From contig WFSI01000093.1 in assembly GCA_015486105.1 (NCBI GenBank), forward strand, positions 1 to 48,154: a stretch of DNA of 48,154 nt, given 5' to 3'. The translations under genes were made by a program, and so were the position numbers. This DNA comes from Aquificota bacterium (GTDB taxonomy: Bacteria > Thermosulfidibacterota > Thermosulfidibacteria > Thermosulfidibacterales > B14-G1). Below, in pieces: positions 24,124-40,440 of this stretch. The notes beneath the pieces were generated by a model, which worked only from the letters and a program-made list of their open reading frames with translations, had not been told where the DNA came from and ran no database searches. How positions within the stretch are numbered: position 1 is the first letter of the stretch; each line of letters opens with the position of its first letter.

Positions 24124-24138
24124 CTCTCCTCTCCTCGC

Positions 24139-26019
24139 CTAAAATAGTCTGCCAATCCAGTAGATGACCACTGCTCCCATCAGGATCATCCAGGCATAGT
24201 CGGGGATATACCCCGTCTGAAACTGCCGGATGCCGCTCCCAGCCAGACGACAGAGCCTCCCCACCCCATTTACTGTGCCATCTATAATGACCACATCCAC
24301 AAACTTCCACAGAAGGTAACGAGACCCATCCACCAAGGGATTGATAATAAAAGCGAAGTAAATCTCGTCCACATAGTACTTGTTATAGAGCAAGGTATAG
24401 ACAGGCCTAAAGGTCCTGGCCATCCCCACAGGGTCAGGCATTTTCCTCATGTACATGAAATAGGCCAATATGATACCAGCTACCCCCATGATGACCGAAA
24501 TAACCAAAAGCACATGCTCCACCCCTGCCCCAGCTTCCTCCCCATGGGCTGCTACTTCACCCAAAACCTTATTAAGGAACCCACCGATACCCCCATGGGG
24601 ACCCAAAGCCAAAAGACCTACCACTGCTGAACCAACAGCCAGTACTATCAGAGGCACCGTCATCACTGGAGGCGATTCTTGAGCTATTTCATAGAGATGA
24701 CTATCCCTAGGCTTACCAAAGAAGGTGAGAAAGATAAGCCTAAACATATAAAAAGCCGTGAGGAAAGCTGTAAAGGTTCCCACAAACCAAATCACCTTGT
24801 GTCCATGCATGAAGGCCCCCGCCAAGATCTCGTCCTTAGACCAGAAGCCTGATAAAGGAGGTATACCTGAAATGGCCAATGCCCCAACTATAAAGGTCCA
24901 TCCTGTGATGGGCATCTTCTTGATAAGCCCTCCCATCTTCTGCATGTTCAGCTCACCGTGAAGCATATGCATCACCGAGCCAGCGCAGAGAAACATAAGG
25001 CCTTTGAAGAAGGCATGGGTAAAGAGATGGAAGATACCAGCAGCGTAAACCCCCACTCCAACACCAATAAACATGTAACCCAGCTGACTTATGGTAGAAT
25101 AAGCCAAGACACGCTTGAGGTCATTGTTCACCAAGGCAATAGTGGCAGCCAATAAGGCGGTAAAAGCACCGATGGAAGCCACTATCTCAGCAGAGAAGGG
25201 GGCCAAATTGTAAAGGACATGGACCCTGGCCACCATGTACACACCCGCAGTGACCATGGTGGCAGCATGGATAAGGGCACTGACCGGGGTAGGGCCTTCC
25301 ATGGCATCAGGGAGCCACACATAGAGAGGGAACTGGGCAGATTTACCAACGGCGCCAACAAAGAGAAAGAGGGTTATGAGGGTAATGATAAGGGGAGAAG
25401 CAAGAGAAGCCCTGGAAAAAACATCAGCAAACATCAAAGAACCATAGAACTTGTATATGGCAAAGAGACCGATCATGAACCCGAGATCTCCAAGTCTGGT
25501 AGTGACAAAGGCCTTCATACCTGCATTGGCCGCGCTGGTCTTCTCATACCAGTACCCGATAAGCAAGTAGGAGCAAAGGCCTACTCCCTCCCAGCCAACA
25601 AACATGAGTAAAAAGTTGTTAGCAGAAACCAGCAGGAGCATAAAAAATGTGAACAGGTTTAACCAAGAAAAGTATTTAGCGTAACCCCTGGGGGTCTCGT
25701 GCTCCATGTACCCAATTGAATAGAGATGAATCCAGGCAGCCACAAAGGAAACCGTGGCCAACATAACCGCCGATAGCTCATCAACAAGGAATCCAACGGG
25801 TATCCTGAAACTCCCCACCGGAATCCACGTATAAAGGTTCATATCACCATGAGCACCGCCTATCACCTTAGAAAGCACCACTAAGGAACATATGCATGAG
25901 GCAAAAAGGGCTGGCACCGCAATGAGATGGGCTTTCTTCTTGGTCACCCACAGAAAGATGCCGTTTATGGCTGCACCCAAAAGAGGAATAAAAACGGCCC
26001 CCACCACCCAAATCATCAT
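24139..26019 (-). CDS. nuoL: NADH-quinone oxidoreductase subunit L
   Basis: GWEGVGLCSYLLIG and GKSAQFPLYVWLPDAMEGPTPVSALIHAATMV. Confidence 0.96.
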   Translation of the reverse strand: MMIWVVGAVFIPLLGAAINGIFLWVTKKKAHLIAVPALFASCICSLVVLSKVIGGAHGDMNLYTWIPVGSFRIPVGFLVDELSAVMLATVSFVAAWIHLYSIGYMEHETPRGYAKYFSWLNLFTFFMLLLVSANNFLLMFVGWEGVGLCSYLLIGYWYEKTSAANAGMKAFVTTRLGDLGFMIGLFAIYKFYGSLMFADVFSRASLASPLIITLITLFLFVGAVGKSAQFPLYVWLPDAMEGPTPVSALIHAATMVTAGVYMVARVHVLYNLAPFSAEIVASIGAFTALLAATIALVNNDLKRVLAYSTISQLGYMFIGVGVGVYAAGIFHLFTHAFFKGLMFLCAGSVMHMLHGELNMQKMGGLIKKMPITGWTFIVGALAISGIPPLSGFWSKDEILAGAFMHGHKVIWFVGTFTAFLTAFYMFRLIFLTFFGKPRDSHLYEIAQESPPVMTVPLIVLAVGSAVVGLLALGPHGGIGGFLNKVLGEVAAHGEEAGAGVEHVLLVISVIMGVAGIILAYFMYMRKMPDPVGMARTFRPVYTLLYNKYYVDEIYFAFIINPLVDGSRYLLWKFVDVVIIDGTVNGVGRLCRLAGSGIRQFQTGYIPDYAWMILMGAVVIYWIGRLF

Positions 26020-26032
26020 ATCTCCTCTCCTC

Positions 26033-26338
26033 TCACCACTTCATCAAGTGTGCCCGATCTACATCAACACCACCCCTGTTCCTGTAAAAGGTGGTGATGA
26101 CCGCCATCCCAATGGCCGCCTCAGCAGCGGCCACAGCCATGACAAACAAGACAATGACCTGACCCTCTGCACTCCCCATGTGCCTGGACAACGCCATAAA
26201 CAAAATATTCACCCCGTTGAGCATAAGCTCTAAACAGAGAAACATGACGATGGTGTTTCTCCTAACCATCAATCCCAACGCTCCCAAGAGAAAAACCAAC
26301 ACACTCAACACCGTATACTGAAAAAGCCCTACTCCCAC
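26033..26338 (-). CDS. nuoK: NADH-quinone oxidoreductase subunit K
   Basis: RRNTI..F.CLELMLN and VAAAEAAIG. GTG start at 26338 (101 aa). Confidence 0.94.
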   Translation of the reverse strand: MGVGLFQYTVLSVLVFLLGALGLMVRRNTIVMFLCLELMLNGVNILFMALSRHMGSAEGQVIVLFVMAVAAAEAAIGMAVITTFYRNRGGVDVDRAHLMKW

Positions 26339-26348
26339 CTTATACCCC

Positions 26349-26852
26349 CTACAGCTTCTTCTTAGCCAATGCCACAGCTCCCAAAGCAGCAACAAAAATG
26401 AGAACGGAAACCAGCTCAAAGGCCAGCATGTAACGGGTGAAAATGAGATGGGAAATCTCACCTATGGACACACCGTGGGATCCCCCTTTCACCCATCCCT
26501 TCCACTCCACACCAAGGACAACCACTTGAATAACAAAGAGGACAACAGCGCCTAAGCCGAACAAGAACCTCCAAGGCGCTATCCTATCCTCATACTCCCC
26601 TTTGTGCAGGTTCATGAGCATGAGAACAAAAAGGAAAAAAACCATGATGGCTCCAGCGTAGACGATGACCTGGAGCATAGCAATGAAGGGAGCCCCCATA
26701 AGAGCCAAGTACATAACAGCAGTAATACACAAATTAGCCAACAGAGAAAGGGCCGAATAGACGGGATTTTTGAGAAAAACTACCCCCAAAGCCGAGAGGA
26801 GAATCAACACAGCCAAAAAGAAAAAAAGCACATCCCAAAGATTAATAATCAT
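26349..26852 (-). CDS. nuoJ: NADH-quinone oxidoreductase subunit J
   Basis: NPVYSAL, QVIVYAGAIMVFFLFVLMLMN and FELVS. ATG at 26852. Confidence 0.94.
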   Translation of the reverse strand: MIINLWDVLFFFLAVLILLSALGVVFLKNPVYSALSLLANLCITAVMYLALMGAPFIAMLQVIVYAGAIMVFFLFVLMLMNLHKGEYEDRIAPWRFLFGLGAVVLFVIQVVVLGVEWKGWVKGGSHGVSIGEISHLIFTRYMLAFELVSVLIFVAALGAVALAKKKL

Positions 26853-26854
26853 AG

Positions 26855-27286
26855 CTACTCCCCACCCGTTTTCTCTAAGAGCCAATTCTTTTCCTTTAAC
26901 AGATGCACTCTACCAGGACCCGGTACCGTTAACTCATAATCCTGGGTCATCTCTATTGCCCCTCGGGGACAAGCATCCACACACAAGCCGCAAAATATAC
27001 ATCTACCATAATCAATGGCGTAATACTCAGCATACTTACCCACATCAGAGCGCTTAAACTCGGGATCCTCCTTCCCATAGAGCTTTATTGCATACGCAGG
27101 ACAAATCTCCTCACAGAGACCACAGGCACAGCATCTCTCTCTTCCATCCTCATCTACCTTGAGAATGTGCCTCCCCCTGTATCTATCCGAGACCTGCCTT
27201 TTCTCGTATGGATATTTTATAGTGATATGAGGCTTAAAGAGATGGCCAAAAGTGACGCTCAATCCCTTAATCAACGGCCCAATCAT
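26855..27286 (-). CDS. nuoI: NADH-quinone oxidoreductase subunit I
   Basis: YPYEK, RYRGRH and two CxxCxxCxxxCP motifs. Confidence 0.95.
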   Translation of the reverse strand: MIGPLIKGLSVTFGHLFKPHITIKYPYEKRQVSDRYRGRHILKVDEDGRERCCACGLCEEICPAYAIKLYGKEDPEFKRSDVGKYAEYYAIDYGRCIFCGLCVDACPRGAIEMTQDYELTVPGPGRVHLLKEKNWLLEKTGGE

Positions 27287-27289
27287 GAC

Positions 27290-28297
27290 TTAAATTCCCC
27301 CTTGGAGAAATAGCATCACACCACCTGTTGCCACTATGTTCAACAGAGTTAAAGGCAAAAGATACTTCCAGGAAAATCCCATGAGTTGATCGTATCTGAA
27401 CCGAGGATAGGTCCACCTAACCCATAGTAAGAAAAAGAATACGGCCACTATCTTAATCAGGAACCATATGGGTCCAGGAACCCAGGCCAAAAAGGAAACG
27501 GGGCTGTACCACCCGCCCAAAAAGAGACACACAGCCACAGCAGAGGTAACTGCCATATTGGCATATTCCCCTAAGAAGAACATGGCAAACTTCATAGAGC
27601 TATACTCAGTATGATACCCACCTACCAATTCCGATTCGGCCTCCGGTAAATCAAAGGGCAAACGGTTAAGTTCGGCAGTGGCAGCCACCATATATAAAAT
27701 AAATGCCAAGGGCTGATACGCCACCAGCCACATGTTTTTCTGATAATGGACGATATCCACTAAACTAAAAGAACCCACAATCATGAGCACGCCCATGATA
27801 GAAAGCCCCAGTATAAGCTCATAGCTGATGAACTGAGCAGCAGATCTCAAACCACCAAGCAAAGGGTACTTGGAATTGGCAGACCACCCACCAAACACGA
27901 TGGCATAGACAGAAAAAGAAGACACGGCCAACAGGTAAAGAACGGCCACATTTATATCAGTAATCACCAGATTGATCTTATGCCCAAAGAGGGTAATGCT
28001 CTCCCCAAAAGGAATAACCCCTATGGCCAAAATGGCAGGAATAATAGCTATTGTAGGGGCCAAAAAGTAGAGGAACTTATCGGATTTGCTCGCTACAATA
28101 TCCTCTTTAAAAAAGAGCTTAAGGCCGTCGGCAAAGGGCTGCAAAAGCGCATGGGGACCGCAGTACATAGGCCCCAGCCTATCTTGAATATGGCCGGAAA
28201 CCTTCCTCTCAGCTAATGTCCCATACGCAACTATCAACATGAGCACCGCAAACAGCACTAACAGCTTAACCAATGCCACTATGATAGCCAGTAACAT
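27290..28297 (-). CDS. nuoH: NADH-quinone oxidoreductase subunit H
   Basis: ERKV...QDRLGP, QPFADGLK and RLPFDLPEAESELVGGYHTEYS. Confidence 0.97.
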   Translation of the reverse strand: MLLAIIVALVKLLVLFAVLMLIVAYGTLAERKVSGHIQDRLGPMYCGPHALLQPFADGLKLFFKEDIVASKSDKFLYFLAPTIAIIPAILAIGVIPFGESITLFGHKINLVITDINVAVLYLLAVSSFSVYAIVFGGWSANSKYPLLGGLRSAAQFISYELILGLSIMGVLMIVGSFSLVDIVHYQKNMWLVAYQPLAFILYMVAATAELNRLPFDLPEAESELVGGYHTEYSSMKFAMFFLGEYANMAVTSAVAVCLFLGGWYSPVSFLAWVPGPIWFLIKIVAVFFFLLWVRWTYPRFRYDQLMGFSWKYLLPLTLLNIVATGGVMLFLQGGI

Positions 28298-28300
28298 AGC

Positions 28301-30595
28301 TCACTCCTTAATGTTACTTAACCTGATTCCCTGGTACCAAGAACCCTTCAAGGTACTTGTCAAGGGAAAATCCGAGAATCCCAAAGAGACCAATGCCCCA
28401 CCCTTAGGCACCTCGTCTTTGACCAAAAGCTTCATATGGAATTGAAGATCATCCGACTCCATTATCACCCTATCGCCCTCCTTAAACCCTAACTCCCCAG
28501 CATGCTCCGGATTCAAAGCAACCCAGGGCTCAGGTTCCAGATGTACAAAGGCATTGCAAAAATCCATCTTCACTCCCATCTTGTAAAAGGGATAATCAAA
28601 CAGAGCAGGAATATCCCCTCTCAATAAATCTTCCTTAGCACTCGACACCTGGGGAGCCTTCAAAACCTCCTTGGAGAGCTCTTGAAAAACCAAAGAAGAT
28701 ACATCCTCTATCTGTTGAAAATCTCCCAAGGGCTTACCCCATTCCCGTGATAATTCCATAGCCACTTGCCAGAGAGACAAAGAATCTCCCTTGGGCTTAA
28801 TAGCCCTCTTACGCTTTTGAGGTTCCCAAAACATGTTCAGCACGGTGCCTCCATCCTCTGCAAAACTGGTAGCGGGTATAAAACAATCCGCATAGGCAAC
28901 GGTCTCCGTAAAGAACATGTCATGCACAACCAACAGGTCCAAATTAGAAAAGGCTTCCTTTATCAAAGATCCATAAGGATAGTCTCTAAAAAGATCCGTG
29001 GAGGAAACAAAAAGGGCCTTTACCTCTCCAGATACACACTTGTTCAATATATCTTCCACGGTTTCTCCATTGGGTGACCAGAATCCCATTTGAAAAGCCC
29101 CTTTAGGATTACCGCCCCAATCCAAAAAGAGGGGAACCACATTCAACCTCCCACCCAACCTCTTTAAGAGATCCCTACCAGCGGGGCTGAGTCTATTTCC
29201 CCCCAAAAGAAGAGGCTTCTTGCCCTCCAATCCCTGGGCAATCTCTTTAACCGTCTCTTCAGAAATCCCGCTTCCCTTTACTAAGGGGCTATACTCTTTC
29301 CCCTCCAAAGCCAGCAGAAGGGCTTCCAGCAATTTCTCTTCCCATCCCGGTAAGGGATTAGCATGCACAGTGGCAAACTTGTAGAGAAAAGAATCAGCAG
29401 TTACCAATAGATAAAGGGGAGATCCCCCTTCCTTACACCCTTTACCGATACTGAGGGCTAAAACTGGATGATGAAGACTCACATCCTCTCCCACCACAAA
29501 GTAGGCCTCTGCTTTCTCCACATCCTCCAAGGAGTTTACAGAAGGCTTCTCAGGGTAACCCTTTTCACCATAAAGCCTGTAATCCACATACTCGCTACCC
29601 AACACCTCCCTCATAAACCTTCCCATAAGAAGGTAGTCCTCACACGTGAGATGGGGAGATGCTAATGTTGCCACTTGGCCACCATTACCAACAATCTCTC
29701 TTAGTCTCTCAGTCACGAAAGTGAAAGATTCTTCCTTCGCAATACCCCTCAGCTTATTCCCTTCCCTCTTTAGAGGAACAGCGATCCTTTCCCCATGATT
29801 TGCAAACTCAAAACCATAACCCCCCCTGTCACAAATCCAAGGGGAAGGATAAGCTGTTTGATGCCGAATCTTCAAAAGCTGATCATCCCTCTGGCCCAAA
29901 TCCAACCAACAACCTATTTCGCAATGGGGACACACACTAGCAGTAAAATCCAGCTTCCATATACGGGTTTTATACCGATAAATATTAGACGTTATAGCTC
30001 CCACAGGACACAAAGCCTCCATATTAAAGGTGTAACGATCAGCAAAGGTCTCGCTCTCATAGGGACCTACTATCGTCCTATGTCCCCTCTCATAGGCACC
30101 CCAGTTGGTACCCCCCATCACCTCGGAACCAAACCTGACACACCTTCTGCAAAGAACGCAGCGGCTCATCTGATGAACAATTAGGGGCCCTAAATACCGG
30201 GTAGGGTACTTATGGGGCTCATCATGAAGGCGCTTTACCGGCTCTCCATACTTAAAAACAAAGTCCTGCAACTCACATTCACCCGCTTGATCGCACACGG
30301 GACAATCAAGAGGATGGTTCACCAAGAGAAACTCCAACAGCCATTTTCTGGCTTCTTGAACCTTTTCGCTATTGGTATAGATCTCCCAACCATCCTGGAC
30401 TTCTGTTATGCAAGCAGGCATAAGTTTAGGAGCACCTTTGACTTCCACCAAGCACATCCTACAGATGCCCGCCGGCTTCAAATATGGATGATAACAAAAG
30501 GCCGGGATATCAACACCAATGCGGTTGGCAGCATTTAGTACAGTCGTCCCTGCGGGAACTTCAATTTCTATTCCATCAATAACTACCTTGGGCAT
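28301..30595 (-). CDS. nuoG: NADH-quinone oxidoreductase subunit G
   Basis: N1b (CYHP..ICRMC..C), N5 (HPLDCPVCDQAGEC), N4 (CVLCRRC...CPVG) and N7 (CPHCEIGC...ICDRG), plus a molybdopterin-oxidoreductase-like C-terminus. Confidence 0.9.
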   Translation of the reverse strand: MPKVVIDGIEIEVPAGTTVLNAANRIGVDIPAFCYHPYLKPAGICRMCLVEVKGAPKLMPACITEVQDGWEIYTNSEKVQEARKWLLEFLLVNHPLDCPVCDQAGECELQDFVFKYGEPVKRLHDEPHKYPTRYLGPLIVHQMSRCVLCRRCVRFGSEVMGGTNWGAYERGHRTIVGPYESETFADRYTFNMEALCPVGAITSNIYRYKTRIWKLDFTASVCPHCEIGCWLDLGQRDDQLLKIRHQTAYPSPWICDRGGYGFEFANHGERIAVPLKREGNKLRGIAKEESFTFVTERLREIVGNGGQVATLASPHLTCEDYLLMGRFMREVLGSEYVDYRLYGEKGYPEKPSVNSLEDVEKAEAYFVVGEDVSLHHPVLALSIGKGCKEGGSPLYLLVTADSFLYKFATVHANPLPGWEEKLLEALLLALEGKEYSPLVKGSGISEETVKEIAQGLEGKKPLLLGGNRLSPAGRDLLKRLGGRLNVVPLFLDWGGNPKGAFQMGFWSPNGETVEDILNKCVSGEVKALFVSSTDLFRDYPYGSLIKEAFSNLDLLVVHDMFFTETVAYADCFIPATSFAEDGGTVLNMFWEPQKRKRAIKPKGDSLSLWQVAMELSREWGKPLGDFQQIEDVSSLVFQELSKEVLKAPQVSSAKEDLLRGDIPALFDYPFYKMGVKMDFCNAFVHLEPEPWVALNPEHAGELGFKEGDRVIMESDDLQFHMKLLVKDEVPKGGALVSLGFSDFPLTSTLKGSWYQGIRLSNIKE

Positions 30596-31815: not shown

Positions 31816-32280
31816 CTACTCCTCAAAATCATAACCTTCAGTAGGATAGTCTTTCCTCAAGGGATGACCAGGGAAATCCTCTGACAAATAAAGCCTGGTA
31901 AGATTCGGGTGACCTTCAAATTCTATACCAAACATGTCGTAGACCTCCCGTTCCATCCAATCTGCTCCAGCCCAAAGCCCACAGGAGGAAGAAACAGTCT
32001 CACCTTCCTCCAAACCTACCTTCACCCGGAGCTGGACTTTAGAATCCATGTTTCTCAAGTGATAGACCACATAAAAACGAGGGCTCTCGCCCTCACCCAT
32101 ATCCAAACCACAGAGATCCACCAAACAATTGAAACCGAAGTCCCTTCTCAGAAGTTCCAGGGCCTCAAAAAGGGAAGATTTATCCACCACCCAGGTATGC
32201 TCTCCTCTAAATTCCGCCTCGTTTATCACCGCCCCTTGCAAACACTCCTTTGCCTCATCCAGCCAATCCATAGCAATCAC
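31816..32280 (-). CDS. nuoC: NADH-quinone oxidoreductase subunit C
   Basis: ADWMEREVYDMFGIEFEGHP...GHPLRKDYP. Confidence 0.96.
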   Translation of the reverse strand: MIAMDWLDEAKECLQGAVINEAEFRGEHTWVVDKSSLFEALELLRRDFGFNCLVDLCGLDMGEGESPRFYVVYHLRNMDSKVQLRVKVGLEEGETVSSSCGLWAGADWMEREVYDMFGIEFEGHPNLTRLYLSEDFPGHPLRKDYPTEGYDFEE

Positions 32281-32286
32281 CTGTAA

Positions 32287-32856
32287 CTATATCTTATTTT
32301 GAAAAGATTCTTTCTCTATCTTCTTCTGAAGCATCAGAATAGCCTGAAGCAAAGCTTCAGGCCTAGGGGGACAGCCAGGAACATAGAAATCCACTGGCAC
32401 TACCTTGTCCACACCTTGCACCACAGCGTAACTCTTATATATACCACCGCCAACAGCACAGGCCCCCATAGCTATAACCCACTTGGGATCGGGCATCTGA
32501 TCATAAACCCTCTTAAGGACAGGAGCCATCTTCTTAGTAAGGGTGCCAGCGACTATCATGAGATCAGCCTGCCTAGGAGATGGTCTAAACACCTCCGCTC
32601 CAAAACGGGCCATATCATAGTGAGAAGCAGCCGTAGCCATCATCTCAATAGCACAACAGGCTAAACCAAAGGTCACCGGCCAGATAGACCATTTTCTGGC
32701 CCAGTTCACTGCCTTATTTAGGGAAGTAATGAGCACTCCCCCCTTTTCCAACATTTCAAGCTCGGCCTCTGTTACGCTCTCCTCTACCAACCTCTCCTCA
32801 GGCTTCACCAACCTGGGGATCTCTACCTTTTCAACAGGAGTTCTCTTCACTCCCAT
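32287..32856 (-). CDS. nuoB: NADH-quinone oxidoreductase subunit B
   Basis: [16 protein letters not shown] and [12 protein letters not shown] at 32856. Confidence 0.97.
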
Positions 32857-33203
32857 TCCAAAGCCCCCCTCCCCCACACATAGACAAAGATAGCCAAGAA
32901 TATAGCGATAAAAACCACCATCTCCAAAAAACCAAAGAGCCCCAGTCTTTTGAAACTCACAGCCCAGGGATAGGTAAAAACAACCTCTATATCAAAAACA
33001 AGAAAGAGAAGAGCAACGATGTAGTAATGAATGAAAAAGGGAGCCCGGGCATCTCCGATGGGATCCAAACCACACTCATAAGGAGAAAGTTTGATAGAAT
33101 CGGGTCGCTTTGGTCCCAGTAAAGCAGAGGCCAAAACAGCAAATACCCCAAAACCAACTCCCAACAAGAGCACAAGGATCAATGGCCAATACGCTTCTCT
33201 CAT
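32847..33203 (-). CDS. nuoA: NADH-quinone oxidoreductase subunit A
   Basis: PYECG and [15 protein letters not shown]. Confidence 0.96.
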
Positions 33204-33228: not shown

Positions 33229-33282
33229 TACATATCACCCAGTCCCCAGCCATGTCAATAGAGAAAATTGTTTTTTTCACAA
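33229..33282 (-). promoter_or_regulatory. nuoA promoter with conserved upstream element (shared with 40411-40440)
   Basis: Minus strand reads TTGTGAAAAAAACAATTTTCTCTA-TTGACA, an 18-nt spacer, then TATGTA. Confidence 0.65.
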
Positions 33283-33335: not shown

Positions 33336-36300
33336 TTAATTAACAGCCTCTACCTTTTCCAGTTCCTCTTCCTCTTCTATCTCCTCTGGAGGTCTATCAC
33401 AGTGGAGGCACCTCTTAGCCTCTTCAACGGCCTGATCCAACGAAAGGCCCTCATTCACCTCCACGAAACTTTTTCTATCCTCCAAAGGCAACATGCAAGG
33501 CTTCGCCCGGGGGAGAGTCACCAGATAAGCCTCCTCATCATAGGTGGTTCCAACCACTTCCCTTTCGGGGAAGGGAATTTTACCTTCATAACCAAAGTAT
33601 TTGTCGATCTCCATAGCAGCTAACCTTCCATGGGCCACGGCTTCCACCACCGTGGCAGGGTTAACTGCGTCTCCCCCTGAAAACACGCCAGGGATGCTGG
33701 TCTTCATAGTCCTATCATCCACTTGCACAAATCCCCATTTATTGAAAAGCTCTTCTTGGGCATCCAGTCCTTTAGTTAAACCCTGACCTATACAAGGAAT
33801 CAAGGTATCGGCCTCTATAGCAAAATTGGAGCCTTCCACAGCAACAGGTCGCCTCCTGCCACCCCTATCGAAACCCCTGGTCTCCATGCGAACGCACTCT
33901 ACCCCCGTCACCTCGCTCTCACCTAGCACTTTAACAGGCGTAATGAGGAAATTGATCTTGACACCCTCTTCCAAAGCCTCTTCAATTTCCTCAGGAAAGG
34001 CAGGCATATCGTTCTTAGTGCGACGATAAATAATGCTCACCTCCTCAGCCCCCAACCTAAGGGCGGTCCTGGCAGCGTCAATGGCAGTATTACCACCTCC
34101 CACTACCACGACTTTATTCCCAATCTCCACCTCCTTACCTAGATTCACATCCCTCAAGAAGTCTATGCCGTGGTACACGCCAGGCAGATCCTCGCCTGGC
34201 ACATTCAGTTTATAGGAGGTATGAGCACCAACCCCCACGAACACAGCCTTATAACCCTCGTCAAAGAGGTTCTGAAGGCTATCCACCTTGTGGTTCAGCT
34301 TAAGATCAACCCCCGCCTCCACAATTCTTTCTATCTCCCTATCCAGCACCTGGGGGGGCAACCGGTAATCAGGGATACCCACCCTCATCATACCTCCCGC
34401 CACTGGCAAGGCTTCAAAAACAGTAGGCAAGTAGCCTAAACGGGTAAGATAAAAGGCGCAGGCCAAACCTGCCGGTCCAGCCCCTATTATAGCCACTTTC
34501 TCCTTTTTGGGATCCTCAGGAGGCCCCCAGGGACCCGCATCTTTCAATGCCCAGTCAGCAAAGATCCTCTTGATCTCCCTTATGGCCACCGCCTCATCAA
34601 ACTTCTCCCTGTTACACTTCTTCTCGCAAAAGGCAGGACACACCCGGGAGCAGGCCGCAGGAAAGGGATTGTTCTCCATGTGAACGTAGTAAGCCTCGGG
34701 TATCTTATTTTCCGCTACCAAGGCTACATACCGGGCAGGATCCACACCAGCAGGACAGGCATTCTGACAGGGGGCATAAAAGAGGGCAGCGCATACACCA
34801 GCAGGACATTTTTTGTCCACGATATGAGCAATATACTCATCTCTGAAATACCTCATAGTGGAAAGGACAGGATTGGGAGCAGTTCCCCCCAAGGCGCAAA
34901 GGGATGTGTTAATTATGAGGTGCCCCAAGGTATCCAGGGTGTCTAAGTCCTCTATCTTGCCTTCACCGTTGGTAATCCTCTCCAAGATATTCAGCATCTG
35001 CTTTAGACCCACACGACAAGGTACACACTGACCGCAGGACTCCTCCACACAAAATTCCAGGAAAAACTTGGCTATATTAACCATGCAGGTATCTTCATCA
35101 AGAACAATCATACCACCAGAGCCCATAATTGCGCCCAGTTCCTTCAAAGATTCATAATCTATGGGAGTATCCAAGTAAGGAGCAGGGATGCAACCACCCG
35201 AAGGACCTCCCGACTGTATAGCCTTAAACTTCTTGCCTTTGGGAATACCCCCACCAATATCGAACACCATCTCCCCCACGGTGGTGCCCATGGGGACCTC
35301 CACCAATCCGATATTGTTCACCTTACCCGTAAGGGAAAAGACCTTGGTGCCCTTACTCTTTTCCGTACCCATGCTGGCATACCAGTCACCGCCGTTCCGG
35401 ATAATAGGGGGAATATTGGCATAAGTCTCCACATTATTGATATTGGTGGGCTTGCCCCAAACGCCCTTATTGGCAGGAAATGGAGGCTTGGGTCTGGGCT
35501 CTCCCCTGCCTCCCTCCACAGACTTGAGCAAGGCCGTCTCTTCTCCACATACAAAGGCACCTGCCCCAATCCTTATCTCCACATCGAAGTCGAACCCCGT
35601 ATCCAGAATGTTTTCACCCAAGAGTCCATACTCCCGGGCCTGGCTCATGGCTATTTCCAGCCTCTCAATGGCTATGGGATACTCTGCCCTTATGTAAATG
35701 TAGCCCTTCTTCACGTTTCCAATAGCGTAAGCAGCTATGGCCATGCCTTCCAATACCCTATGGGGGTCGCCCTCCATGACGCTCCTGTCCATGAAGGCCC
35801 CGGGGTCGCCCTCATCGGCGTTGCAAATTATATACTTCTCATTACCAGGGGCCTTCCTGGTAAACCCCCACTTGAGTCCTGTGGGAAAGCCGGCGCCACC
35901 TCTGCCCCTCAGGCCGCTCTTTGTCACCTCCTCAATCACCTGCTCAGGGGTCATCTCCATTAAAACCTTAGCCAAAGCCTCGTACCCGTTCTCGGCAATG
36001 TACTCATCTATGGACTCAGGATCTATCTTACCCGCATTTTCAAGAACTATCTTGTGCTGCTTGGCGAAGAAGCTGTACTCCATCATGCTCCTGACCACCT
36101 GCCCAGTGACCTCGTGGAGGAGCATCCTCTCCACAGGCCTTCCTTTGAGCAAATGCTCCTCCACAAGAAACGGCACATCCTCAGGCTGAACCCTGGCATA
36201 GAGAAGCATATCAGGATAGATCACCACCACGGGGCCCAAATCACAGGTCCCTCCACATCCCCTTTTTACTACCTTCACCTCAGCCTCTAAGCCCCTCCTC

Positions 36301-36395
36301 TTTATCTCTTCTTCAAAGGCTGCCCTGACCTTAGGAGACCCACTGGCCACGCAAGCCGTACCCTCACAAATTAAGACATGGGTTCTATAAATCAT
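33336..36395 (-). CDS. nuoF: NuoF/HydB(HndC)-like flavoprotein fused to a GltD/NfnB-like FAD/NADPH oxidoreductase domain
   Basis: Trx-like [2Fe-2S] (CEGTAC...CGGTC), GRGGAGFPTG, NADEGDPGAFMDR, GGPSGG, ESCGQCVPC..SLC and H...KCPAGVC. These are followed by PCQNACP, CSRVCPAFCEKKC, GAGPAG, GGGNTAIDAAR, YRRT and EAKRCLHC. Confidence 0.9.
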   Translation of the reverse strand: MIYRTHVLICEGTACVASGSPKVRAAFEEEIKRRGLEAEVKVVKRGCGGTCDLGPVVVIYPDMLLYARVQPEDVPFLVEEHLLKGRPVERMLLHEVTGQVVRSMMEYSFFAKQHKIVLENAGKIDPESIDEYIAENGYEALAKVLMEMTPEQVIEEVTKSGLRGRGGAGFPTGLKWGFTRKAPGNEKYIICNADEGDPGAFMDRSVMEGDPHRVLEGMAIAAYAIGNVKKGYIYIRAEYPIAIERLEIAMSQAREYGLLGENILDTGFDFDVEIRIGAGAFVCGEETALLKSVEGGRGEPRPKPPFPANKGVWGKPTNINNVETYANIPPIIRNGGDWYASMGTEKSKGTKVFSLTGKVNNIGLVEVPMGTTVGEMVFDIGGGIPKGKKFKAIQSGGPSGGCIPAPYLDTPIDYESLKELGAIMGSGGMIVLDEDTCMVNIAKFFLEFCVEESCGQCVPCRVGLKQMLNILERITNGEGKIEDLDTLDTLGHLIINTSLCALGGTAPNPVLSTMRYFRDEYIAHIVDKKCPAGVCAALFYAPCQNACPAGVDPARYVALVAENKIPEAYYVHMENNPFPAACSRVCPAFCEKKCNREKFDEAVAIREIKRIFADWALKDAGPWGPPEDPKKEKVAIIGAGPAGLACAFYLTRLGYLPTVFEALPVAGGMMRVGIPDYRLPPQVLDREIERIVEAGVDLKLNHKVDSLQNLFDEGYKAVFVGVGAHTSYKLNVPGEDLPGVYHGIDFLRDVNLGKEVEIGNKVVVVGGGNTAIDAARTALRLGAEEVSIIYRRTKNDMPAFPEEIEEALEEGVKINFLITPVKVLGESEVTGVECVRMETRGFDRGGRRRPVAVEGSNFAIEADTLIPCIGQGLTKGLDAQEELFNKWGFVQVDDRTMKTSIPGVFSGGDAVNPATVVEAVAHGRLAAMEIDKYFGYEGKIPFPEREVVGTTYDEEAYLVTLPRAKPCMLPLEDRKSFVEVNEGLSLDQAVEEAKRCLHCDRPPEEIEEEEELEKVEAVN

Positions 36396-36421: not shown

Positions 36422-36802
36422 CTATTCTAAAGGCGTAGAGACCACATATTCCTTCACGGTTTCACCCCTTATTATGTGGCTTTCTATGATCTCTTTGGCC
36501 TTTTCAGCAGTGAGATTGCAGTACATCACCTTTCTCCCTTCTCTATCCTCCACCAAAGCCACGGGCTGAATAGGATCGCTTCCCATGAACCCCGTCTGGG
36601 TCACCACTACATTGTGGAGATCATGCTCTTCTATTGCATCCAAAAAGGCCTTTAACACCTCTCTGGCGCCAGCGGCTATCCCTGAGGTTCCCATAGGAAC
36701 GACTATTCTATAGTCATACTCCCCCTCCCTTATGTCCATCTTCTTCTTAGCCTGCTCCCTTATTTTCCTCAATTGATCCAAGGTTCTCACCTTCTCTGCC
36801 AT
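36422..36802 (-). CDS. HndB-like thioredoxin-fold ([2Fe-2S] ferredoxin-like) subunit lacking the usual cysteines
   Basis: RTLDQLRKIRE N-terminus, RIVVPMGTSGIAAGAREV, VTQTGFMGSDPIQP and IIESHI..G..V.EY. Confidence 0.8.
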   Translation of the reverse strand: MAEKVRTLDQLRKIREQAKKKMDIREGEYDYRIVVPMGTSGIAAGAREVLKAFLDAIEEHDLHNVVVTQTGFMGSDPIQPVALVEDREGRKVMYCNLTAEKAKEIIESHIIRGETVKEYVVSTPLE

Positions 36803-36812
36803 AACTCACCTC

Positions 36813-37361
36813 CTACTCTGCTTTCATTACATCTCTAAGATTTTCGTTTATATAACCCCTTAAAAACCCGAGCACATTAGCATCAGACATGGGTACATCA
36901 CCCAGCAAATCCTTCACCTTTTTGCTATCAAAAAGAAACTCACCTTTCCCCTCATACTTCACTACAAATCTGACCTCAGGGTTAGAAACAATAAGGGCAA
37001 AGAGGGTACCGGCTAAATCCCCCATAGGGGGACGATCTATGTGACTTAATCCAAACGCCGCTTCCAGGACAGTTCCTTTACCAGGGCTACTATCCAAACT
37101 GAAATAACCATCACAATGCTCGGCCACCCACTTAAACATCGGTATCCCCAAGCCCACCTTTCCACCTTGCTTAGTTGTATAAAATGGATCCTGAACCCAT
37201 TTTAACTCTTTGGCAGTCATACCTCTGCCATCGTCCTTAACCCGCACCTTAAGGAGATCCCTGTCCATATCTTCATTTATGACGAGCTCTATCTTCCTCG
37301 CACCAGCGGCTAAAGAGTTTTGAAGTATGTCCATTATATGCAAGGCAAGTTCCTCCATCAT
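36813..37361 (-). CDS. Stand-alone HATPase_c (histidine-kinase-like ATP-binding) protein
   Basis: ELALHIMDILQNS, DDGRGM, DPFYTTK, GLGIP, GKGT and HIDRPPMGD. Confidence 0.88.
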   Translation of the reverse strand: MMEELALHIMDILQNSLAAGARKIELVINEDMDRDLLKVRVKDDGRGMTAKELKWVQDPFYTTKQGGKVGLGIPMFKWVAEHCDGYFSLDSSPGKGTVLEAAFGLSHIDRPPMGDLAGTLFALIVSNPEVRFVVKYEGKGEFLFDSKKVKDLLGDVPMSDANVLGFLRGYINENLRDVMKAE

Positions 37362-38137
37362 GATTCATCTTGCCCCAATTCGAGAGAATTTGAAGAGCGA
37401 TGAAGCACCTGAACCGCCTCCTTGCCCCTCTTCAAGGCCTGCATAAAACCCCACCACGAAGGCTCCTCCATGAAAAAGAGGGTAACAACAGCCCCTATAT
37501 CTTCAGGGTAATGGGCATCTGAAGCGCTCACGATAGTATACTTCCGCAACTCAGGCCACTTAGCTACAGCTTGCTCCGGTGTTAGCGCCCGGGAAACCTC
37601 TACCGCCTCAAGATCCAAATAATCGGGAATAAACCCCAACTGGTTGATTACACCGTAGGAAGCCCTGTCCACATGGGCAGGAATGGGGAAACCCTGATAG
37701 TCCTTCACCATTCTGACGCATGCGTCAAAAGAGAGGGACAAGGAGTTAAGAAGGAGTTTCTCCTCAAATCCCACCACATTTTCATCCTCATCCACTATCA
37801 CCTGATCCCCGAAATAGTCGGGGTTGTTCTTCACATCTGGAAGATACCCATAGATTACATCTCTAAAAGAGAAGACCGCATCAAGAGTTCCGAAATAAGC
37901 CAAAAGATGAACCTCCTCTTCCGTCTGGAGCTCCATTCCTGGAATGACCTGCACTCCTATCTTATCCCCTATCCTCTTGGCATACAACACGTTGTCACAA
38001 GTATTATGATCAGTAACAGCAATCATATGAATACCCTTCTCCTTGGCTTCTCTCACGATACGCCCTGGAGACATCTCCAGGCTCCCACAAGGAGATAAAG
38101 TAGAGTGTATGTGAAGGTCCGCCATATACCACTTCAA
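37358..38137 (-). CDS. PHP-domain phosphoesterase
   Basis: DLHIHS.LSPC, TDHN, EEVHLL, PAHVDR and SDAH; TTG start with a TTGA overlap. Confidence 0.9.
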   Translation of the reverse strand: MKWYMADLHIHSTLSPCGSLEMSPGRIVREAKEKGIHMIAVTDHNTCDNVLYAKRIGDKIGVQVIPGMELQTEEEVHLLAYFGTLDAVFSFRDVIYGYLPDVKNNPDYFGDQVIVDEDENVVGFEEKLLLNSLSLSFDACVRMVKDYQGFPIPAHVDRASYGVINQLGFIPDYLDLEAVEVSRALTPEQAVAKWPELRKYTIVSASDAHYPEDIGAVVTLFFMEEPSWWGFMQALKRGKEAVQVLHRSSNSLELGQDES

Positions 38138-38484
38138 GAATCATCCTCCCCCCTCAAAAGCTCATACAACACCCCGGACAATTCAAATAAAGGTAATTTG
38201 GAAACAAGAATAGGAATCCCCTCTTTCTCCGCTTTATCCAATACTTCAGGTGAAGGAACTATACCTTTAGCAAGCACGATTCCCCCCAGATCACTTACTT
38301 TAGCTACAGCCACTATATTTAAATGCCTCTGAATAGTAAGCCACAAATCCCCTGCATTAGCACCAGCCATTACATCGGAAAGAAGGTCCGATGCATAGGC
38401 CCACCTCACCTCCCTGTCTTGGACATCCACACCCCTCGTCACTAATTCTAAATCCAATTTGTCTATAATATTTTTAAGCAGCAT
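38134..38484 (-). CDS. DRTGG-domain protein
   Basis: YASDLLSDVMA, LWLTIQRHLNIVAVA and AEKEGIPIL. Confidence 0.85.
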   Translation of the reverse strand: MLLKNIIDKLDLELVTRGVDVQDREVRWAYASDLLSDVMAGANAGDLWLTIQRHLNIVAVAKVSDLGGIVLAKGIVPSPEVLDKAEKEGIPILVSKLPLFELSGVLYELLRGEDDS

Positions 38485-38923
38485 CTTTCCTCCTAAAAAC
38501 CACAGAATATATCTTGGTTCCTTTGCCCATCTCCGACTCTATATGAAAAACATCAGACTTTTCCTTAATATTAGGCAAGCCCAAACCTGCACCGAAACCC
38601 AATTCTCTTATCCAGAGAGGAGCCGTAGAGTAACCAGGAGTCATGGCCTTTTCTACATCCTCAATACCCGGGCCATCATCTTCCACAACCACCTCCACTC
38701 TGTTAGGCTTAACCTCAACCTTCAAGTGACCACCCCTATCCGCGTAAGATGCCAGATTCATCTCAGCCTCAAAACAGATTATAGATACCTTTTTGATCAC
38801 ATCATCCTCGACCCCTATTTCTTGCAAGCGCCTCTTTATCTCTGTAGAAACTACGCCCACATTGTCCAAATCCCCACCTTTCAAAATCGCATAGTGAAGA
38901 ACAACCTCCCAGCCTTCACTCAA
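38474..38923 (-). CDS. Anti-sigma-factor-type Ser/Thr kinase (RsbT/RsbW-like HATPase)
   Basis: FEAEMNL, EDDGPGI, AMTPGYSTA, GFGAGLGLPN and GKGT. TTG at 38923 overlaps the upstream stop (TTGA). Confidence 0.88.
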   Translation of the reverse strand: MSEGWEVVLHYAILKGGDLDNVGVVSTEIKRRLQEIGVEDDVIKKVSIICFEAEMNLASYADRGGHLKVEVKPNRVEVVVEDDGPGIEDVEKAMTPGYSTAPLWIRELGFGAGLGLPNIKEKSDVFHIESEMGKGTKIYSVVFRRKDAA

Positions 38924-39279
38924 AGATACTTCCCCTCTGAACACCGAATCCCTTTTAAGTACAACCTGCCGCAGGCCTCAAAGGTGGGGATAGGGGTACT
39001 TAATAACACTATACCGTTCTCCGTTGCCCAACTAATCACTTTCTCTTCAGTGGGCTTCTTACCCCTCACGTAGAGAATAGCCGGAATACCCATCACCTCC
39101 GCCACTCTCACTACCTGTGGTGCCACATTACTAGTGACAGTAAGGGCAGGTCCGCCTCTCAGAGCCAGAACATCAGACAGAAGATCCGCCGCACAAGCGG
39201 CTTCTATTTCCCTTCTTCCCTCTTCTTCCAGGTTCAAGAACTGGGCTTCCAATAGCTCAGCTACTTCCTTCAGTTTCAC
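38920..39279 (-). CDS. DRTGG-domain protein
   Basis: ACAADLLSDVLA, QVVRVAE, VRGKKP and FEACGRLY. Confidence 0.85.
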   Translation of the reverse strand: MKLKEVAELLEAQFLNLEEEGRREIEAACAADLLSDVLALRGGPALTVTSNVAPQVVRVAEVMGIPAILYVRGKKPTEEKVISWATENGIVLLSTPIPTFEACGRLYLKGIRCSEGKYL

Positions 39280-39766
39280 TCAATCCCTCCCTCTCATAGT
39301 ACCCCTTCACTATATTCCAGGCCCGCTGGGGACTGAGCCTCCCGTAAACATCTTCACCAATCATAATAACAGGGGCAAGACCACAAGCCCCAACGCATCT
39401 CACGGTATTCACAGTAAACTTCTGATCTTTAGTGGTGCCCCCCACCTTAACCCTCAGCCTGTGACAGAGGGTTTCCAGCACATCCTTCCCCCCCTTCACG
39501 TGGCAGGCAGTTCCCAAACAGACACGGATCTCATACTCCCCTATGGGCTCTGTCCTGAAAAAGTTGTAAAAGGTTACCACGCCATAAACATGGCTGGGCG
39601 GAACCCCTAGTTCCTGGGCAACATACCCAATAATCTCCGGCGGAAGATAGCCAAAGACCCCTTGAGAAAAGTGAAGCACTTTAATAAGGGACCCAGGATC
39701 CCCCCTGAAATTCGCCACGAAGTCCTTAACCTTATTATGCTCCGGCGTGTCCGGCAGTTTCACCAT
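39257..39766 (-). CDS. nuoE: NuoE/HydC(HndA)-like [2Fe-2S] subunit
   Basis: QGVFGYLP, VYGVVTFY, CLGTAC and CVGACGLAP. Confidence 0.92.
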   Translation of the reverse strand: MVKLPDTPEHNKVKDFVANFRGDPGSLIKVLHFSQGVFGYLPPEIIGYVAQELGVPPSHVYGVVTFYNFFRTEPIGEYEIRVCLGTACHVKGGKDVLETLCHRLRVKVGGTTKDQKFTVNTVRCVGACGLAPVIMIGEDVYGRLSPQRAWNIVKGYYEREGLSETEGSS

Positions 39767-39778
39767 TGCCCCCCTCCT

Positions 39779-40351
39779 TTAACGAGCACCAAATTCAAAC
39801 CAGTGATAAACATCCCTCATGAGCTGTTCATAACTACCCTTCACACCCTCATAGAGTCGGGCATTCTCTATAGCAATAGTAGCCTGCTCAGCCAAAGCCT
39901 GAACAAAATCTACCTCATCCGCGCCAAAAGCCCGGGGGTTAGAAGTATAAAGTCTAAGAACACCAATCACTTTACCCCTCAACACCAAAGGAACACTAAG
40001 TATAGAAGCTACGCCTTCCTTTACAGCCGCCTCTTTATACTGGACCCTAATATCATGAGCTGCATCATAAACAGCTACAGGTTTACCCTCCATGGCATCG
40101 GCGACGCTTCTGTCAGCCTCAACGGGACCCTTCTTTAAATAATCCTCAGAGATGCCATAAGAAGCCACCAACTCCAATCGCTTAGACTCCTCATCCAAAA
40201 GCCGCAGAGTAGCACCCTTGACCCCCATCACTTCCGAAACCTTCTTCACCGCCCGGTCAAAAACTTCCTTGAGACTAAGAGTAGAGTTAATCAATCTACT
40301 CACTTCTTTGAAAGTCTCAAAATACTTCTTATACCTCCCCTCTTCTGCCAT
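39779..40351 (-). CDS. Stand-alone GAF-domain protein
   Basis: INSTLSL.EV, LELVASYG, SILSVPL, VIGVLRLY and LAEQATIAIENARLY. ATG at 40351. Confidence 0.88.
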   Translation of the reverse strand: MAEEGRYKKYFETFKEVSRLINSTLSLKEVFDRAVKKVSEVMGVKGATLRLLDEESKRLELVASYGISEDYLKKGPVEADRSVADAMEGKPVAVYDAAHDIRVQYKEAAVKEGVASILSVPLVLRGKVIGVLRLYTSNPRAFGADEVDFVQALAEQATIAIENARLYEGVKGSYEQLMRDVYHWFEFGAR

Positions 40352-40386
40352 AAAAGCACCCCCCCCCCAAGGTACTATTCTGGGAG

Positions 40387-40440
40387 AGATTACTACCCCG
40401 GTGAAATCATTGTCAATAGAGAAAATGATTTCCTTCACAA
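40387..40440 (-). promoter_or_regulatory. Promoter of the GAF-nuoE...nuoF-fusion operon with conserved upstream element
   Basis: Minus strand reads TTGTGAAGGAAATCATTTTCTCTA-TTGACA, an 18-nt spacer, then TAATCT. The inverted repeat GAAATCATT-N12-AATGATTTC (40403-40432) straddles the -35 box. Confidence 0.65.

Follow-up and report, generated by a model that had tools for sequence, protein, structure and literature searches.

A HydB-GltD fusion flavoprotein beside a complex I operon without nuoEF: a candidate input head for NADH and NADPH

The window considered here is a stretch of 48,154 nucleotides, positions 1 to 48,154 of contig WFSI01000093.1 (assembly GCA_015486105.1), from a bacterium assigned to the Thermosulfidibacterota. 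On its minus strand it carries a gene for a 1019-residue flavoprotein, in which a core of the HydB/BfuB type is fused to a GltD-type module, and directly downstream of that gene an operon for respiratory complex I that lacks nuoE and nuoF. I propose that the fusion, with a NuoE-like protein encoded in the same cluster, takes the place of NuoEF: docked on NuoG, the two would form the head through which the adjacent complex I receives electrons from both NADH and NADPH. Judged from the genes, this is probably what the cluster is for. What is new is the genomic context, a nuoEF-less complex I beside a fusion cluster. The fusion as such is already known and belongs to a large family. It is in print as the enlarged HydB (beta-subunit) with a GltD domain of the Vallitalea guaymasensis genome paper (PMC6163223) and as the "sub-type I BfuB" of group A3 [FeFe]-hydrogenases, described from Hydrogenedentota and five other phyla (mSystems 2024, PMC11406978). 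The literature searched, mostly open-access papers in their main texts, has the fusion only in hydrogenase contexts and holds no paper on a fusion beside a nuoEF-less complex I; the same texts report no biochemical characterisation of sub-type I BfuB.

The proposal draws on several lines of evidence. The nuoEF genes have been lost, the only partner of the NuoG/HydA type is NuoG, and the two units have a nuo-specific promoter block in common. The fusion has the architecture of a BfuB, NuoG is intact, both halves of the fusion are under purifying selection, and there is a precedent: Schut et al. (2022; PMC9304861) predicted Nuo-Bfu complexes, menaquinone-reducing complexes I with a HydB/HydC-type module in place of the NADH module. 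The literature search met the Nuo-Bfu class in that paper only.

A complex I operon lacking nuoE and nuoF

The features on which the argument turns are these.

33336..36395, minus strand: HydB/BfuB::GltD fusion flavoprotein, 1019 aa (open reading frame (ORF) and translation, matches in Pfam, NCBIfam and solved structures, motif alignment, ratio of nonsynonymous to synonymous substitution (dN/dS))
33254..33282, minus strand: predicted promoter/operator block of 29 nt, copy 1, 5' of nuoA; -35 TTGACA at 33258-33253, TGnTATGTA at 33237-33229, nuoA ATG at 33203
32847..33203, minus strand: nuoA (Pfam Oxidored_q4), ATG at 33203
32287-32877, 31816-32280 and 30613-31815, minus strand: nuoB, nuoC and nuoD (profile matches)
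28301..30595, minus strand: nuoG, 764 aa, starting 17 bp after nuoD
21095..28297, minus strand: nuoH, I, J, K, L, M and N (profile matches)
40412..40440, minus strand: block copy 2, TTGTGAA-N8-TTTTCTCTATTGAC, 5' of the GAF/nuoE...fusion unit

The spacer between the fusion and nuoA is 132 bp long. From nuoA the operon in the window runs A-B-C-D-G, with no nuoE or nuoF between nuoD and nuoG. I compared it with a set of 18 genomes from the phylum, all of the grade of metagenome-assembled genomes (MAGs), that fall into three families: f1, the family of the window, with six genomes (73-96% complete; the window's own genome is 1.89 Mb and 94% complete), and the sister families f2 and f3. The order nuoD-nuoG without nuoEF recurs in four more genomes (G001, G002, G003 and G004) and in the metagenome loci L128-L130, that is, in both genera of f1, and the fusion adjoins nuoA in six independent assemblies (the window, G001, G002, L128, L129 and L130). 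Five genomes of the two sister families retain D-E-F-G, with an F of about 425 aa, in an ordinary nuoABCDEFGHIJKLMN.

Among the 18 genomes the fusion is restricted to f1, where all six have it (one as a fragment), and among the matches listed no canonical NuoF of about 425 aa comes from an f1 genome. Each of the six has exactly one protein with the NADH-G_4Fe-4S_3 domain, the NuoG of the nuo operon, and none, at the completeness just given, has the [FeFe]-hydrogenase domain Fe_hyd_lg_C. Besides the fusion, the window's own genome has just one Complex1_51K gene, for a HydB of 612 aa that sits in a cluster linked to POR.

What remains of the operon looks like an old possession. NuoB and NuoD are 67-77% identical to their counterparts in the sister families, NuoC 51-62%, and the membrane and quinone-module subunits 65-77%. 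NuoG retains every ligand position of clusters N1b, N5, N4 and N7; over its first 215 residues it shares 55-62% identity with canonical NuoG and 35-36% with the HydA and NuoG-like partners that fusions have elsewhere. Because the membrane and quinone-module subunits and the N-terminus of NuoG remain this similar, with all ligands kept, I take the operon to have been inherited vertically and nuoEF to have been deleted from it.

The spacer between the fusion and nuoA cannot be aligned among relatives save for one block, ATTGTGAAAAAAACAATTTTCTCTATTGACA...TGnTATGTAGCC. The block also lies 5' of nuoA in canonical operons (G009, G011, G013) and is conserved before nuoA in all three families. Since it precedes nuoA in operons of the canonical kind, it is best read as the ancestral nuo promoter, and nuoA-N is probably a transcription unit of its own. 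The pattern TTGTGAA-N8-TTTTCTNTATTGAC has two matches in the window with no mismatch, where none is expected by chance, and in the rest of the 1.89-Mb genome no match except one at three mismatches. A scan of the phylum that allowed at most one mismatch found it at 22 places in 15 of the 18 genomes, and a control with the reversed pattern found it nowhere. Genomes of f3 have one copy, those of f2 two in tandem about 150 bp apart, and those of f1 two that are separate. The downstream gene was checked for 19 of the 22 places (the other three being in G007, G014 and G016): it is always nuoA in f2 and f3, and in f1 one copy leads to nuoA and the other to the nuoE...fusion cluster (G000-G004).

I predict that, throughout the phylum, TTGTGAA-N8-TTTTCTCTATTGAC(A) serves the nuo genes as their private promoter/operator. 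To judge by its letters, what stands in front of the fusion cluster is a copy of that nuo-specific control element, and because both units share it, it is the strongest sign that the fusion unit and the nuo operon work together. No perfect Rex-type box (TTGTGAA-N4-6-TTCACAA) occurs in the genome. A generic scan for promoters and terminators gave nothing above chance and did not detect the conserved block. The -35 region of the POR-linked cluster, on contig C84, resembles the nuo block (TTTTCTTTATTGACA) and lacks the TTGTGAA half.

Between the second copy of the block and the fusion lie eight genes, all on the minus strand.

39779..40438, minus strand: GAF-domain protein (Pfam GAF_2, 2.5e-21)
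39257..39766, minus strand: NuoE/HydC/BfuC-like [2Fe-2S] subunit, 169 aa (Pfam 2Fe-2S_thioredx, 5.3e-49)
38920..39279, minus strand: orf119, a conserved protein of 119 aa, kept in fusion clusters of other lineages
38474..38944, minus strand: HATPase_c_2/SpoIIAB-like kinase-type protein (profile matches)
38134..38484, minus strand: DRTGG-domain protein (weak match, 2.4e-4), kept in fusion clusters elsewhere
37358..38137, minus strand: PHP-domain phosphoesterase-like protein (profile matches)
36813..37361, minus strand: HATPase_c protein, 182 aa (profile matches)
36422..36802, minus strand: orf126, with a Trx-like 2Fe-2S-ferredoxin fold and no cysteine ligands, 26 bp 5' of the fusion (weak match to NCBIfam fdxn_Clost, 4e-9)

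The NuoE-like protein matches the HoxE/NuoE families of NCBIfam below or near their cut-offs, and it is closer to the NuoE proteins that accompany fusions elsewhere (50-59% identity) than to canonical NuoE of the sister families (36-39%). Pfam and NCBIfam scans give no match for orf119. In most loci of other phyla a homologue of orf126, 34-49% identical, stands directly 5' of the fusion, so orf126 is probably part of the complex. The GAF gene probably starts not at the listed GTG but at an ATG about 90 nt further on, past the promoter block. It is present in G001 and probably absent from G002, G003 and L129, where the distance between the block and nuoE is only about 125-260 nt.

In the sister genus g2 of the same family, L114 (7836-10516, G003) and L214 (2094-4627, G004) carry a unit orf153-NuoE2-NuoF2 between dprA and topA, divergent from the fusion cluster; its NuoF2 has 544 aa, a TFK motif of the respiratory type and no Zn hinge. 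The pair is absent from the window's genus, since dprA (40711-41790) and topA (41634-43835) are adjacent here. One genome of family f2, G010, has a NuoF2-like gene of 547 aa.

The fusion protein and its two halves

The first-pass annotation, made from the letters of the window, had placed a 1019-aa HydB-GltD/NfnB fusion at 33336..36395. The ORF exists, on the minus strand; the plus-strand reading has many stops. Every motif that annotation named is in the translation: at the FMN site EGDPGAFMDR (195-204) and SGGPSGG (395-401), at the hinge H524...KKC530PAGVC535, in the Fer4_20 region PCQNACP (542-548) and CSRVCPAFCEKKC (582-594), at the FAD and NADPH sites GAGPAG (638-643), GGGNTAIDAAR (766-776) and YRRT (790-793), and near the C-terminus RCLHC (995-999). 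Pfam finds all the domains that the proposed architecture calls for: 2Fe-2S_thioredx (PF01257) at 4-79, Complex1_51K (the Nuo51 FMN domain) at 157-329 (1.8e-46), SLBB at 353-401, NADH_4Fe-4S (the NuoF 4Fe-4S region) at 441-524 (2.3e-33), Fer4_20 at 535-618 and Pyr_redox_2 at 633-923 (1.2e-33). The cofactor sites predicted for the N-terminal part are a Trx-like 2Fe-2S cluster, FMN with NADH, a 4Fe-4S cluster and a Zn hinge; those predicted for the C-terminal part are two [4Fe-4S] clusters, FAD and an NADPH site.

Nor is the fusion an artefact of assembly, a risk that the earlier annotation had itself raised. It is a genuine form of the gene product, both halves and the junction being kept in homologues. 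A word-indexed search with the fusion returned at least 8000 matches. The 120 matches listed, 850-1037 aa long, contain the two halves and share 57-93% identity with the query. Bacillota, Spirochaetes and Chrysiogenales are represented, the sources label the proteins NuoF or hydrogenase, and one match is from a MAG that one source labels Thermosulfidibacter takaii (89% identity). The HydB::GltD junction is unchanged in all 78 aligned sequences; in the fusion of the window the first cluster motif of GltD begins 8 residues past the last hinge cysteine. Within f1 both halves have a dN/dS of 0.04-0.05, which indicates strong purifying selection.

Two irregularities in the record of the gene may be set beside this. 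All three sister-genus assemblies (G003 C36/C19, G004 C176/C127 and L131) have a contig break inside the C-terminal part of the fusion gene, near its acidic, Glu-rich tail, which suggests a stretch that is hard to assemble. In one Atribacteria MAG (L044, 10812-13803) the fusion appears as a 620-aa HydB-plus-Fer4_20 ORF and a 370-aa Pyr_redox_2 ORF, either through a frameshift or as a natural split form.

That the N-terminal half is of the HydB type and not a respiratory NuoF had been argued from its motifs, and the argument held when I aligned 130 NuoF-like sequences from the fetched loci (74 fusions, 27 long HydB, 5 canonical NuoF and 24 NuoF2-like). NADEGDPGAFMDR is present in 59 of the 74 fusions and 17 of the 27 long HydB, NADEGEPGTFKDR in all five canonical NuoF of the sister families and 19 of the 24 short NuoF2-like proteins. 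HydB and the fusions combine NADEGDPGAFMDR with QxGGPSGG, canonical NuoF of the sister families NADEGEPGTFKDR with IPGGSSTP. The ligands of the NuoF-type 4Fe-4S cluster (B1), C454/C457/C460/C500, are conserved in the fusions, and those of the Trx-like 2Fe-2S cluster, C10/C15/C47/C51, are invariant across the 78 aligned sequences. The putative Zn-hinge residues C437/H524/C530/C535 are kept in 74 of 74 fusions and match C437/H524/C529/C534 of Thermococcus sibiricus NfnB (PMC12018979).

The nearest solved relatives are HydB/BfuB chains, 7t2r_B (the B subunit of NiFe-HydABCSL, 4.9e-248) and 7q4v_B (A. woodii HydB), with NfnB/StnB (9n5u_B, 9bov_B, 8oh5_B) following and respiratory Nqo1/NuoF far weaker, at 1e-126 or worse. 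As a respiratory NuoF the fusion falls short in every respect looked at: it scores 512.5 bits against the NCBIfam equivalog TIGR01959, below the cut-off of 558.65, its NADEGDPGAFMDR motif is not of the TFK type, its gene lies 5' of nuoA and it belongs to a separate clade. The NuoF-like core, the B5 2Fe-2S domain, the His/Cys3 hinge (a site for Zn or B2 that follows the 4-helix bundle) and the replaced B3/B4 are those of sub-type I BfuB. The usual companion of that sub-type, the [FeFe]-hydrogenase BfuA/HydA, is the one trait missing, with Fe_hyd_lg_C in none of the six family genomes.

The C-terminal half begins where HydB would have its ferredoxin domain. The absence of that domain, already noted in the first-pass annotation, is borne out by the translation, which has no CX2CX2CX3CP pair; the Fer4_20 domain supplies two clusters in its place. 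With Fer4_20 and Pyr_redox_2 both recognised by Pfam, the GltD/NfnB/DPD-type unit is complete. NCBIfam groups this half with PRK12771/GltD-type NAD(P)-binding proteins. Its nearest solved relatives are the NADPH modules of NfnA (9n5u_A, 1e-117; 9bov_A, 7e-112) and StnC (8oh5_C, 1.5e-95), next to which comes T. maritima NfnB (9e-95), and the GGGNTA...YRR stretch is common to these NfnA, StnC and NfnB enzymes. Specificity for NADP(H) is inferred from that likeness. I considered whether the C-terminal domains of HydB from A. woodii and A. mobile are homologous to Fer4_20, and dropped the idea: past about residue 540 the phmmer alignment has low posterior support.

The order of the cluster ligands is permuted. 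The final 25 residues of the fusion (EEAKRCLHC) align to the start of the Fer4_20 profile, so the first of the Cys pairs in the GltD cluster domain has been relocated to the C-terminus. The same permutation, with PC..CP first and RCLxC last, is found in the GltD inserts of StnC and NfnA. K609, R791 and R792 are invariant in all 78 aligned fusions. Lys609 aligns with K170 of StnC, where NfnB of T. maritima has a Glu that is a ligand of the FAD-proximal 4Fe-4S cluster, and the Lys form accompanies a non-bifurcating FAD (Kumar et al., PMC10482914). The GltD FAD site thus looks like the non-bifurcating Stn type, and because Lys609 marks such a site, the GltD half would be a plain module for the entry or exit of electrons between NADPH and iron-sulfur clusters. 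This reading runs counter to the second bifurcating centre suggested for sub-type I BfuB (PMC11406978).

The earlier claim of bifurcating-type motifs at the FMN site, then, stands, in that the motifs are those of HydB/BfuB. The suggestion that one polypeptide carries two nicotinamide sites, which could be coupled to the NuoG wire, is supported in part: an FMN/NAD(H) and an FAD/NADP(H) module are predicted in the one chain, and the link to NuoG has the indirect support of the missing nuoEF, of NuoG as the sole partner of the NuoG/HydA type, and of the nuo block common to both units.

Fusions in other lineages and related enzymes

Fusion loci were collected by a HydB-core pattern scan of genome contigs, which mostly found ordinary HydB (fusions in 8 of 80 loci), from relatives' genomes, and by a metagenome scan that used a junction-specific alignment. 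For the 78 fusion ORFs with a complete core, the first gene of a partner type downstream was as follows (L204 carries a wrong label in this count).

FdhA, frequently interrupted by an in-frame TGA: 16 of 78 fusion ORFs
NuoG-like protein of 550-830 aa: 15 of 78
HydA: 12 of 78, plus 2 probable
NuoG of a nuo operon: 5 of 78
None seen, mostly at contig ends: 28 of 78

A partner is thus visible for 50 fusion ORFs, and in 43 of them it is HydA, FdhA or a NuoG-like protein (12, 16 and 15). A second NuoE2/NuoF2 pair, with an F of about 530 aa and the TFK type, stands between fusion and partner in 21 of the 50. By Pfam, HydA lies beside the fusion in five of the eight genome loci, and locus L141 has a NuoG-like protein of 611 aa. 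The FdhA partners (for example L165 11509-12570, L181 5362-6417 and L207 11246-12307) have an ORF break near residue 353 with an in-frame continuation, the pattern that a TGA read as selenocysteine would give.

Five metagenome loci (L138, L141, L144, L164 and L198) have nuoK/L/M/N directly 5', on the same strand, of PHP-nuoE-orf126-fusion-nuoE2-nuoF2-NuoG-like (611 aa). One possible reading of this layout is a complex I cluster whose head genes come at the 3' end.

A quick maximum-likelihood tree of the NuoF core (130 rows, LG+G4, SH-aLRT support only, with 20 ordinary HydB rows sampled at random from the genome loci) separates canonical NuoF, the NuoF2-like proteins, and HydB with the fusions (support 99-100). 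The fusion falls on the HydB side of the tree, away from the canonical NuoF proteins of the sister families (support 100). The fusions are not monophyletic. The six of f1 form a group (support 100) that is sister (95) to a 38-row clade (98) of fusions linked to HydA, FdhA or NuoG-like proteins, and the five metagenome loci are nested deep within that clade. A single origin for the two nuo-adjacent arrangements is rejected: joining the five with f1 fails the approximately unbiased (AU) test at p 0.003, for a group that was named after the tree was seen. Because the test separates these loci from the f1 group, they would represent a second, independent juxtaposition of fusion and nuo genes.

How does the arrangement in the window compare with systems already described? 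Sub-type I BfuB (PMC11406978) and the Vallitalea HydB (PMC6163223) have the identical architecture, a DPD_II (Fer4_20) and an FAD/NAD(P) domain standing in for B3/B4 and a NuoE/BfuC gene nearby. Both are encoded with an [FeFe]-hydrogenase HydA/BfuA; here the HydA domain is found in none of six genomes and what lies downstream is nuoABCDGHIJKLMN. Nuo-Bfu (PMC9304861) shares with the window the genes for the membrane and quinone modules of complex I and for a Bfu-type B/C pair that would replace NuoEF. Its bfuABC sit mid-cluster, at the position of nuoEFG, and its BfuB has ferredoxin-type B3/B4 (it was selected by IPR017896), whereas here the B/C-like genes form a separate unit 5' of nuoA with its own copy of the promoter, an NADPH/FAD module takes the place of B3/B4, and NuoG is the canonical one, vertically inherited.

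The transhydrogenases StnABC and NfnABC, the latter also called Nfn-Bfu (8oh5, 9n5u, 9bov; PMC7483475, PMC10482914, PMC12018979), have the same kit of parts: a NuoE-like protein, a NuoF-like Bfu core, a GltD NADPH/FAD module and a NuoG-like wire. Theirs are the GltD modules to which the one here is closest (1e-117 to 1.5e-95), and it has the same permuted order, Lys at the position of StnC K170, and the GxGxxA and YRR NADPH motifs. In those enzymes, however, GltD is inserted in the NuoG-like A subunit, where it feeds the mid-potential path, and B keeps B3/B4; here GltD is a C-terminal fusion on B and replaces B3/B4. Those enzymes are soluble, and the NuoG here belongs to a membrane complex I.

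With canonical NuoE/NuoF the fusion shares the FMN/NADH fold, the N3-type 4Fe-4S cluster and a 2Fe-2S partner in NuoE; it differs in being AFM-type and not TFK-type and in its extra N-terminal 2Fe-2S domain, Zn hinge and GltD module of 480 residues. With the module of NfnB, GltD and the N-terminal part of DPD it shares a Fer4_20 with two 4Fe-4S clusters, the GxGxxG of FAD and the GGGNTA...YRR motifs of the NADPH type. It differs from them in having the first Cys pair at the C-terminus, Lys609 for the Glu ligand expected of a bifurcating NfnB, and no adjoining partner of the NfnA or PyrK type; the NfnAB pair of this genome is encoded elsewhere, on contig C5. A GltD-related flavoprotein has also been described in place of NuoI in mbx-like operons (PMC4758237).

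Electron paths and competing explanations

If the fusion and the NuoE-like protein, whose gene lies 3 kb upstream, are the head of this complex I, NADH would be oxidised at FMN and its electrons would pass, by homology, through the NuoF-type 4Fe-4S cluster to the NuoG chain and on to NuoI, NuoB and quinone, taken here to be menaquinone. The low-potential branch of Bfu enzymes leads from FMN by way of the mobile 2Fe-2S cluster in BfuC to B3/B4, which lie beyond the Zn hinge in BfuB's C-terminal domain, and ends at ferredoxin (PMC12018979). Because the first GltD motif follows the hinge cysteine by 8 residues, the GltD clusters, FAD and NADP(H) would here stand at the place of B3/B4 and ferredoxin. 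NADPH would be oxidised at the GltD FAD, and the two GltD 4Fe-4S clusters, in the seat of the ferredoxin-reducing B3/B4, would be joined to the FMN site by a mobile 2Fe-2S domain, that of the NuoE-like subunit. Overall, such a complex I would act as a proton-pumping NAD(P)H:quinone oxidoreductase, which in reverse could use the proton-motive force to produce both NADH and NADPH.

Several observations weigh against this head. Because the 18 genomes are closely related, their phyletic pattern counts as no more than one or two evolutionary events. In its C-terminal part NuoG shares only 29-38% identity with NuoG of the sister families. The NuoE-like gene is separated from the fusion by six genes of a regulatory type that is typical of hydrogenase clusters. 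Since nuoA-N keeps its ancestral promoter and the two units are probably transcribed separately, their adjacency says less than an operon would. In genus g2, the NuoE2/NuoF2 pair beside the fusion cluster could be the true head of complex I.

An alternative view is that the enzyme is soluble and orphaned: the fusion and the NuoE-like protein would be the remnant of a Bfu cassette, once linked to HydA or FdhA and now without a catalytic partner, that works as a stand-alone NADPH:NAD+ transhydrogenase or diaphorase, and the nuoEF-less complex I would be fed by another donor, such as ferredoxin via NuoG/NuoI. The upstream set of orf119, HATPase, DRTGG, PHP, HATPase and orf126 is indeed the same as in loci linked to hydrogenase or formate dehydrogenase, the fusion unit and nuoA-N have separate promoters, 28 of the 78 fusion ORFs have no visible partner (mostly, it is true, at contig ends), and the genome depends on ferredoxin-linked enzymes such as POR and Por-Bfu. 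It is hard to see, however, why canonical nuoEF should have been lost in exactly the family that gained the fusion, why NuoG should then have retained its full set of clusters, or why a block that elsewhere stands only before nuoA should have been copied before the fusion cluster. The conserved NuoF-type 4Fe-4S cluster (C454/C457/C460/C500) would be a dead end in a stand-alone enzyme. I regard the orphan as unlikely.

A second possibility keeps the fusion on complex I and makes it bolder. The simpler reading of two nucleotide sites would be that they are used independently; the bolder is that their use is obligately coupled. The head would then be of the Bfu type with NADP(H) in the place of ferredoxin, splitting the electrons of NADH between quinone (through NuoG) and NADP+ (through the NuoE cluster, GltD and FAD), and its reverse would be an obligate confurcation of NADH and NADPH. 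Such a head could carry out a quinone-driven transhydrogenation from NADH to NADPH, and confurcation would raise the driving force for proton pumping with a low-potential menaquinone. I consider the coupled version quite improbable.

It is very improbable that the fusion serves a partner elsewhere, be it the 236-aa iron-sulfur protein of Por-Bfu, an Hdr-type complex or a gene missing from assemblies that are 73-96% complete: the genome does have other iron-sulfur flavoprotein systems (Por-Bfu on C84, NfnAB on C5 and, on C20, an HdrA-like protein that contains a GltD insert), but the Por-Bfu cluster comes with NuoE and HydB genes of its own, conserved together across the order, the C20 protein is HdrA-like and not NuoG-like, all six genomes lack HydA and have a single NuoG-type protein each, and the fusion adjoins nuoA in six independent assemblies.

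These other systems deserve a short description. Contig C84 (3648-9700) encodes POR gamma, alpha and beta, then a NuoE-like protein (162 aa), the HydB with a 2x[4Fe-4S] tail (612 aa) and the 236-aa small 2Fe-2S/4Fe-4S protein. All three families examined keep this cluster, NuoE and HydB included, and it looks like a Por-Bfu type. GltD-containing genes other than the fusion are, in this genome, NfnAB (C5), the HdrA-like gene (C20) and a 509-aa GltD-like protein (C101). The protein on C20 (5749-9138; L208) has 1129 aa and a GltD insert 50% identical to the GltD half of the fusion. It was tried as a StnC-like partner and rejected, being HdrA-like and encoded within an Hdr/MvhD cluster, with MvhD, HdrB/C-like and FrhB-like genes.

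If the fusion is indeed the head of this complex I, the enzyme would be a natural complex I that can take electrons from both NADH and NADPH or that, alternatively, could make both when driven in reverse by the membrane potential in a hydrogen- and sulfur-dependent autotroph. It would offer a concrete test case, in culture, for the Nuo-Bfu class that has so far only been predicted, Thermosulfidibacter takaii, the name that one source gives to an 89%-identical relative, being an isolated species, and a test case for the widespread sub-type I BfuB as well. The private 29-nt block would provide a simple handle on the regulation of the whole system. Because the ferredoxin branch is replaced by a simple, assayable NADP(H) site, the disputed mechanism by which Bfu enzymes use their flavin and clusters would be easier to probe here.

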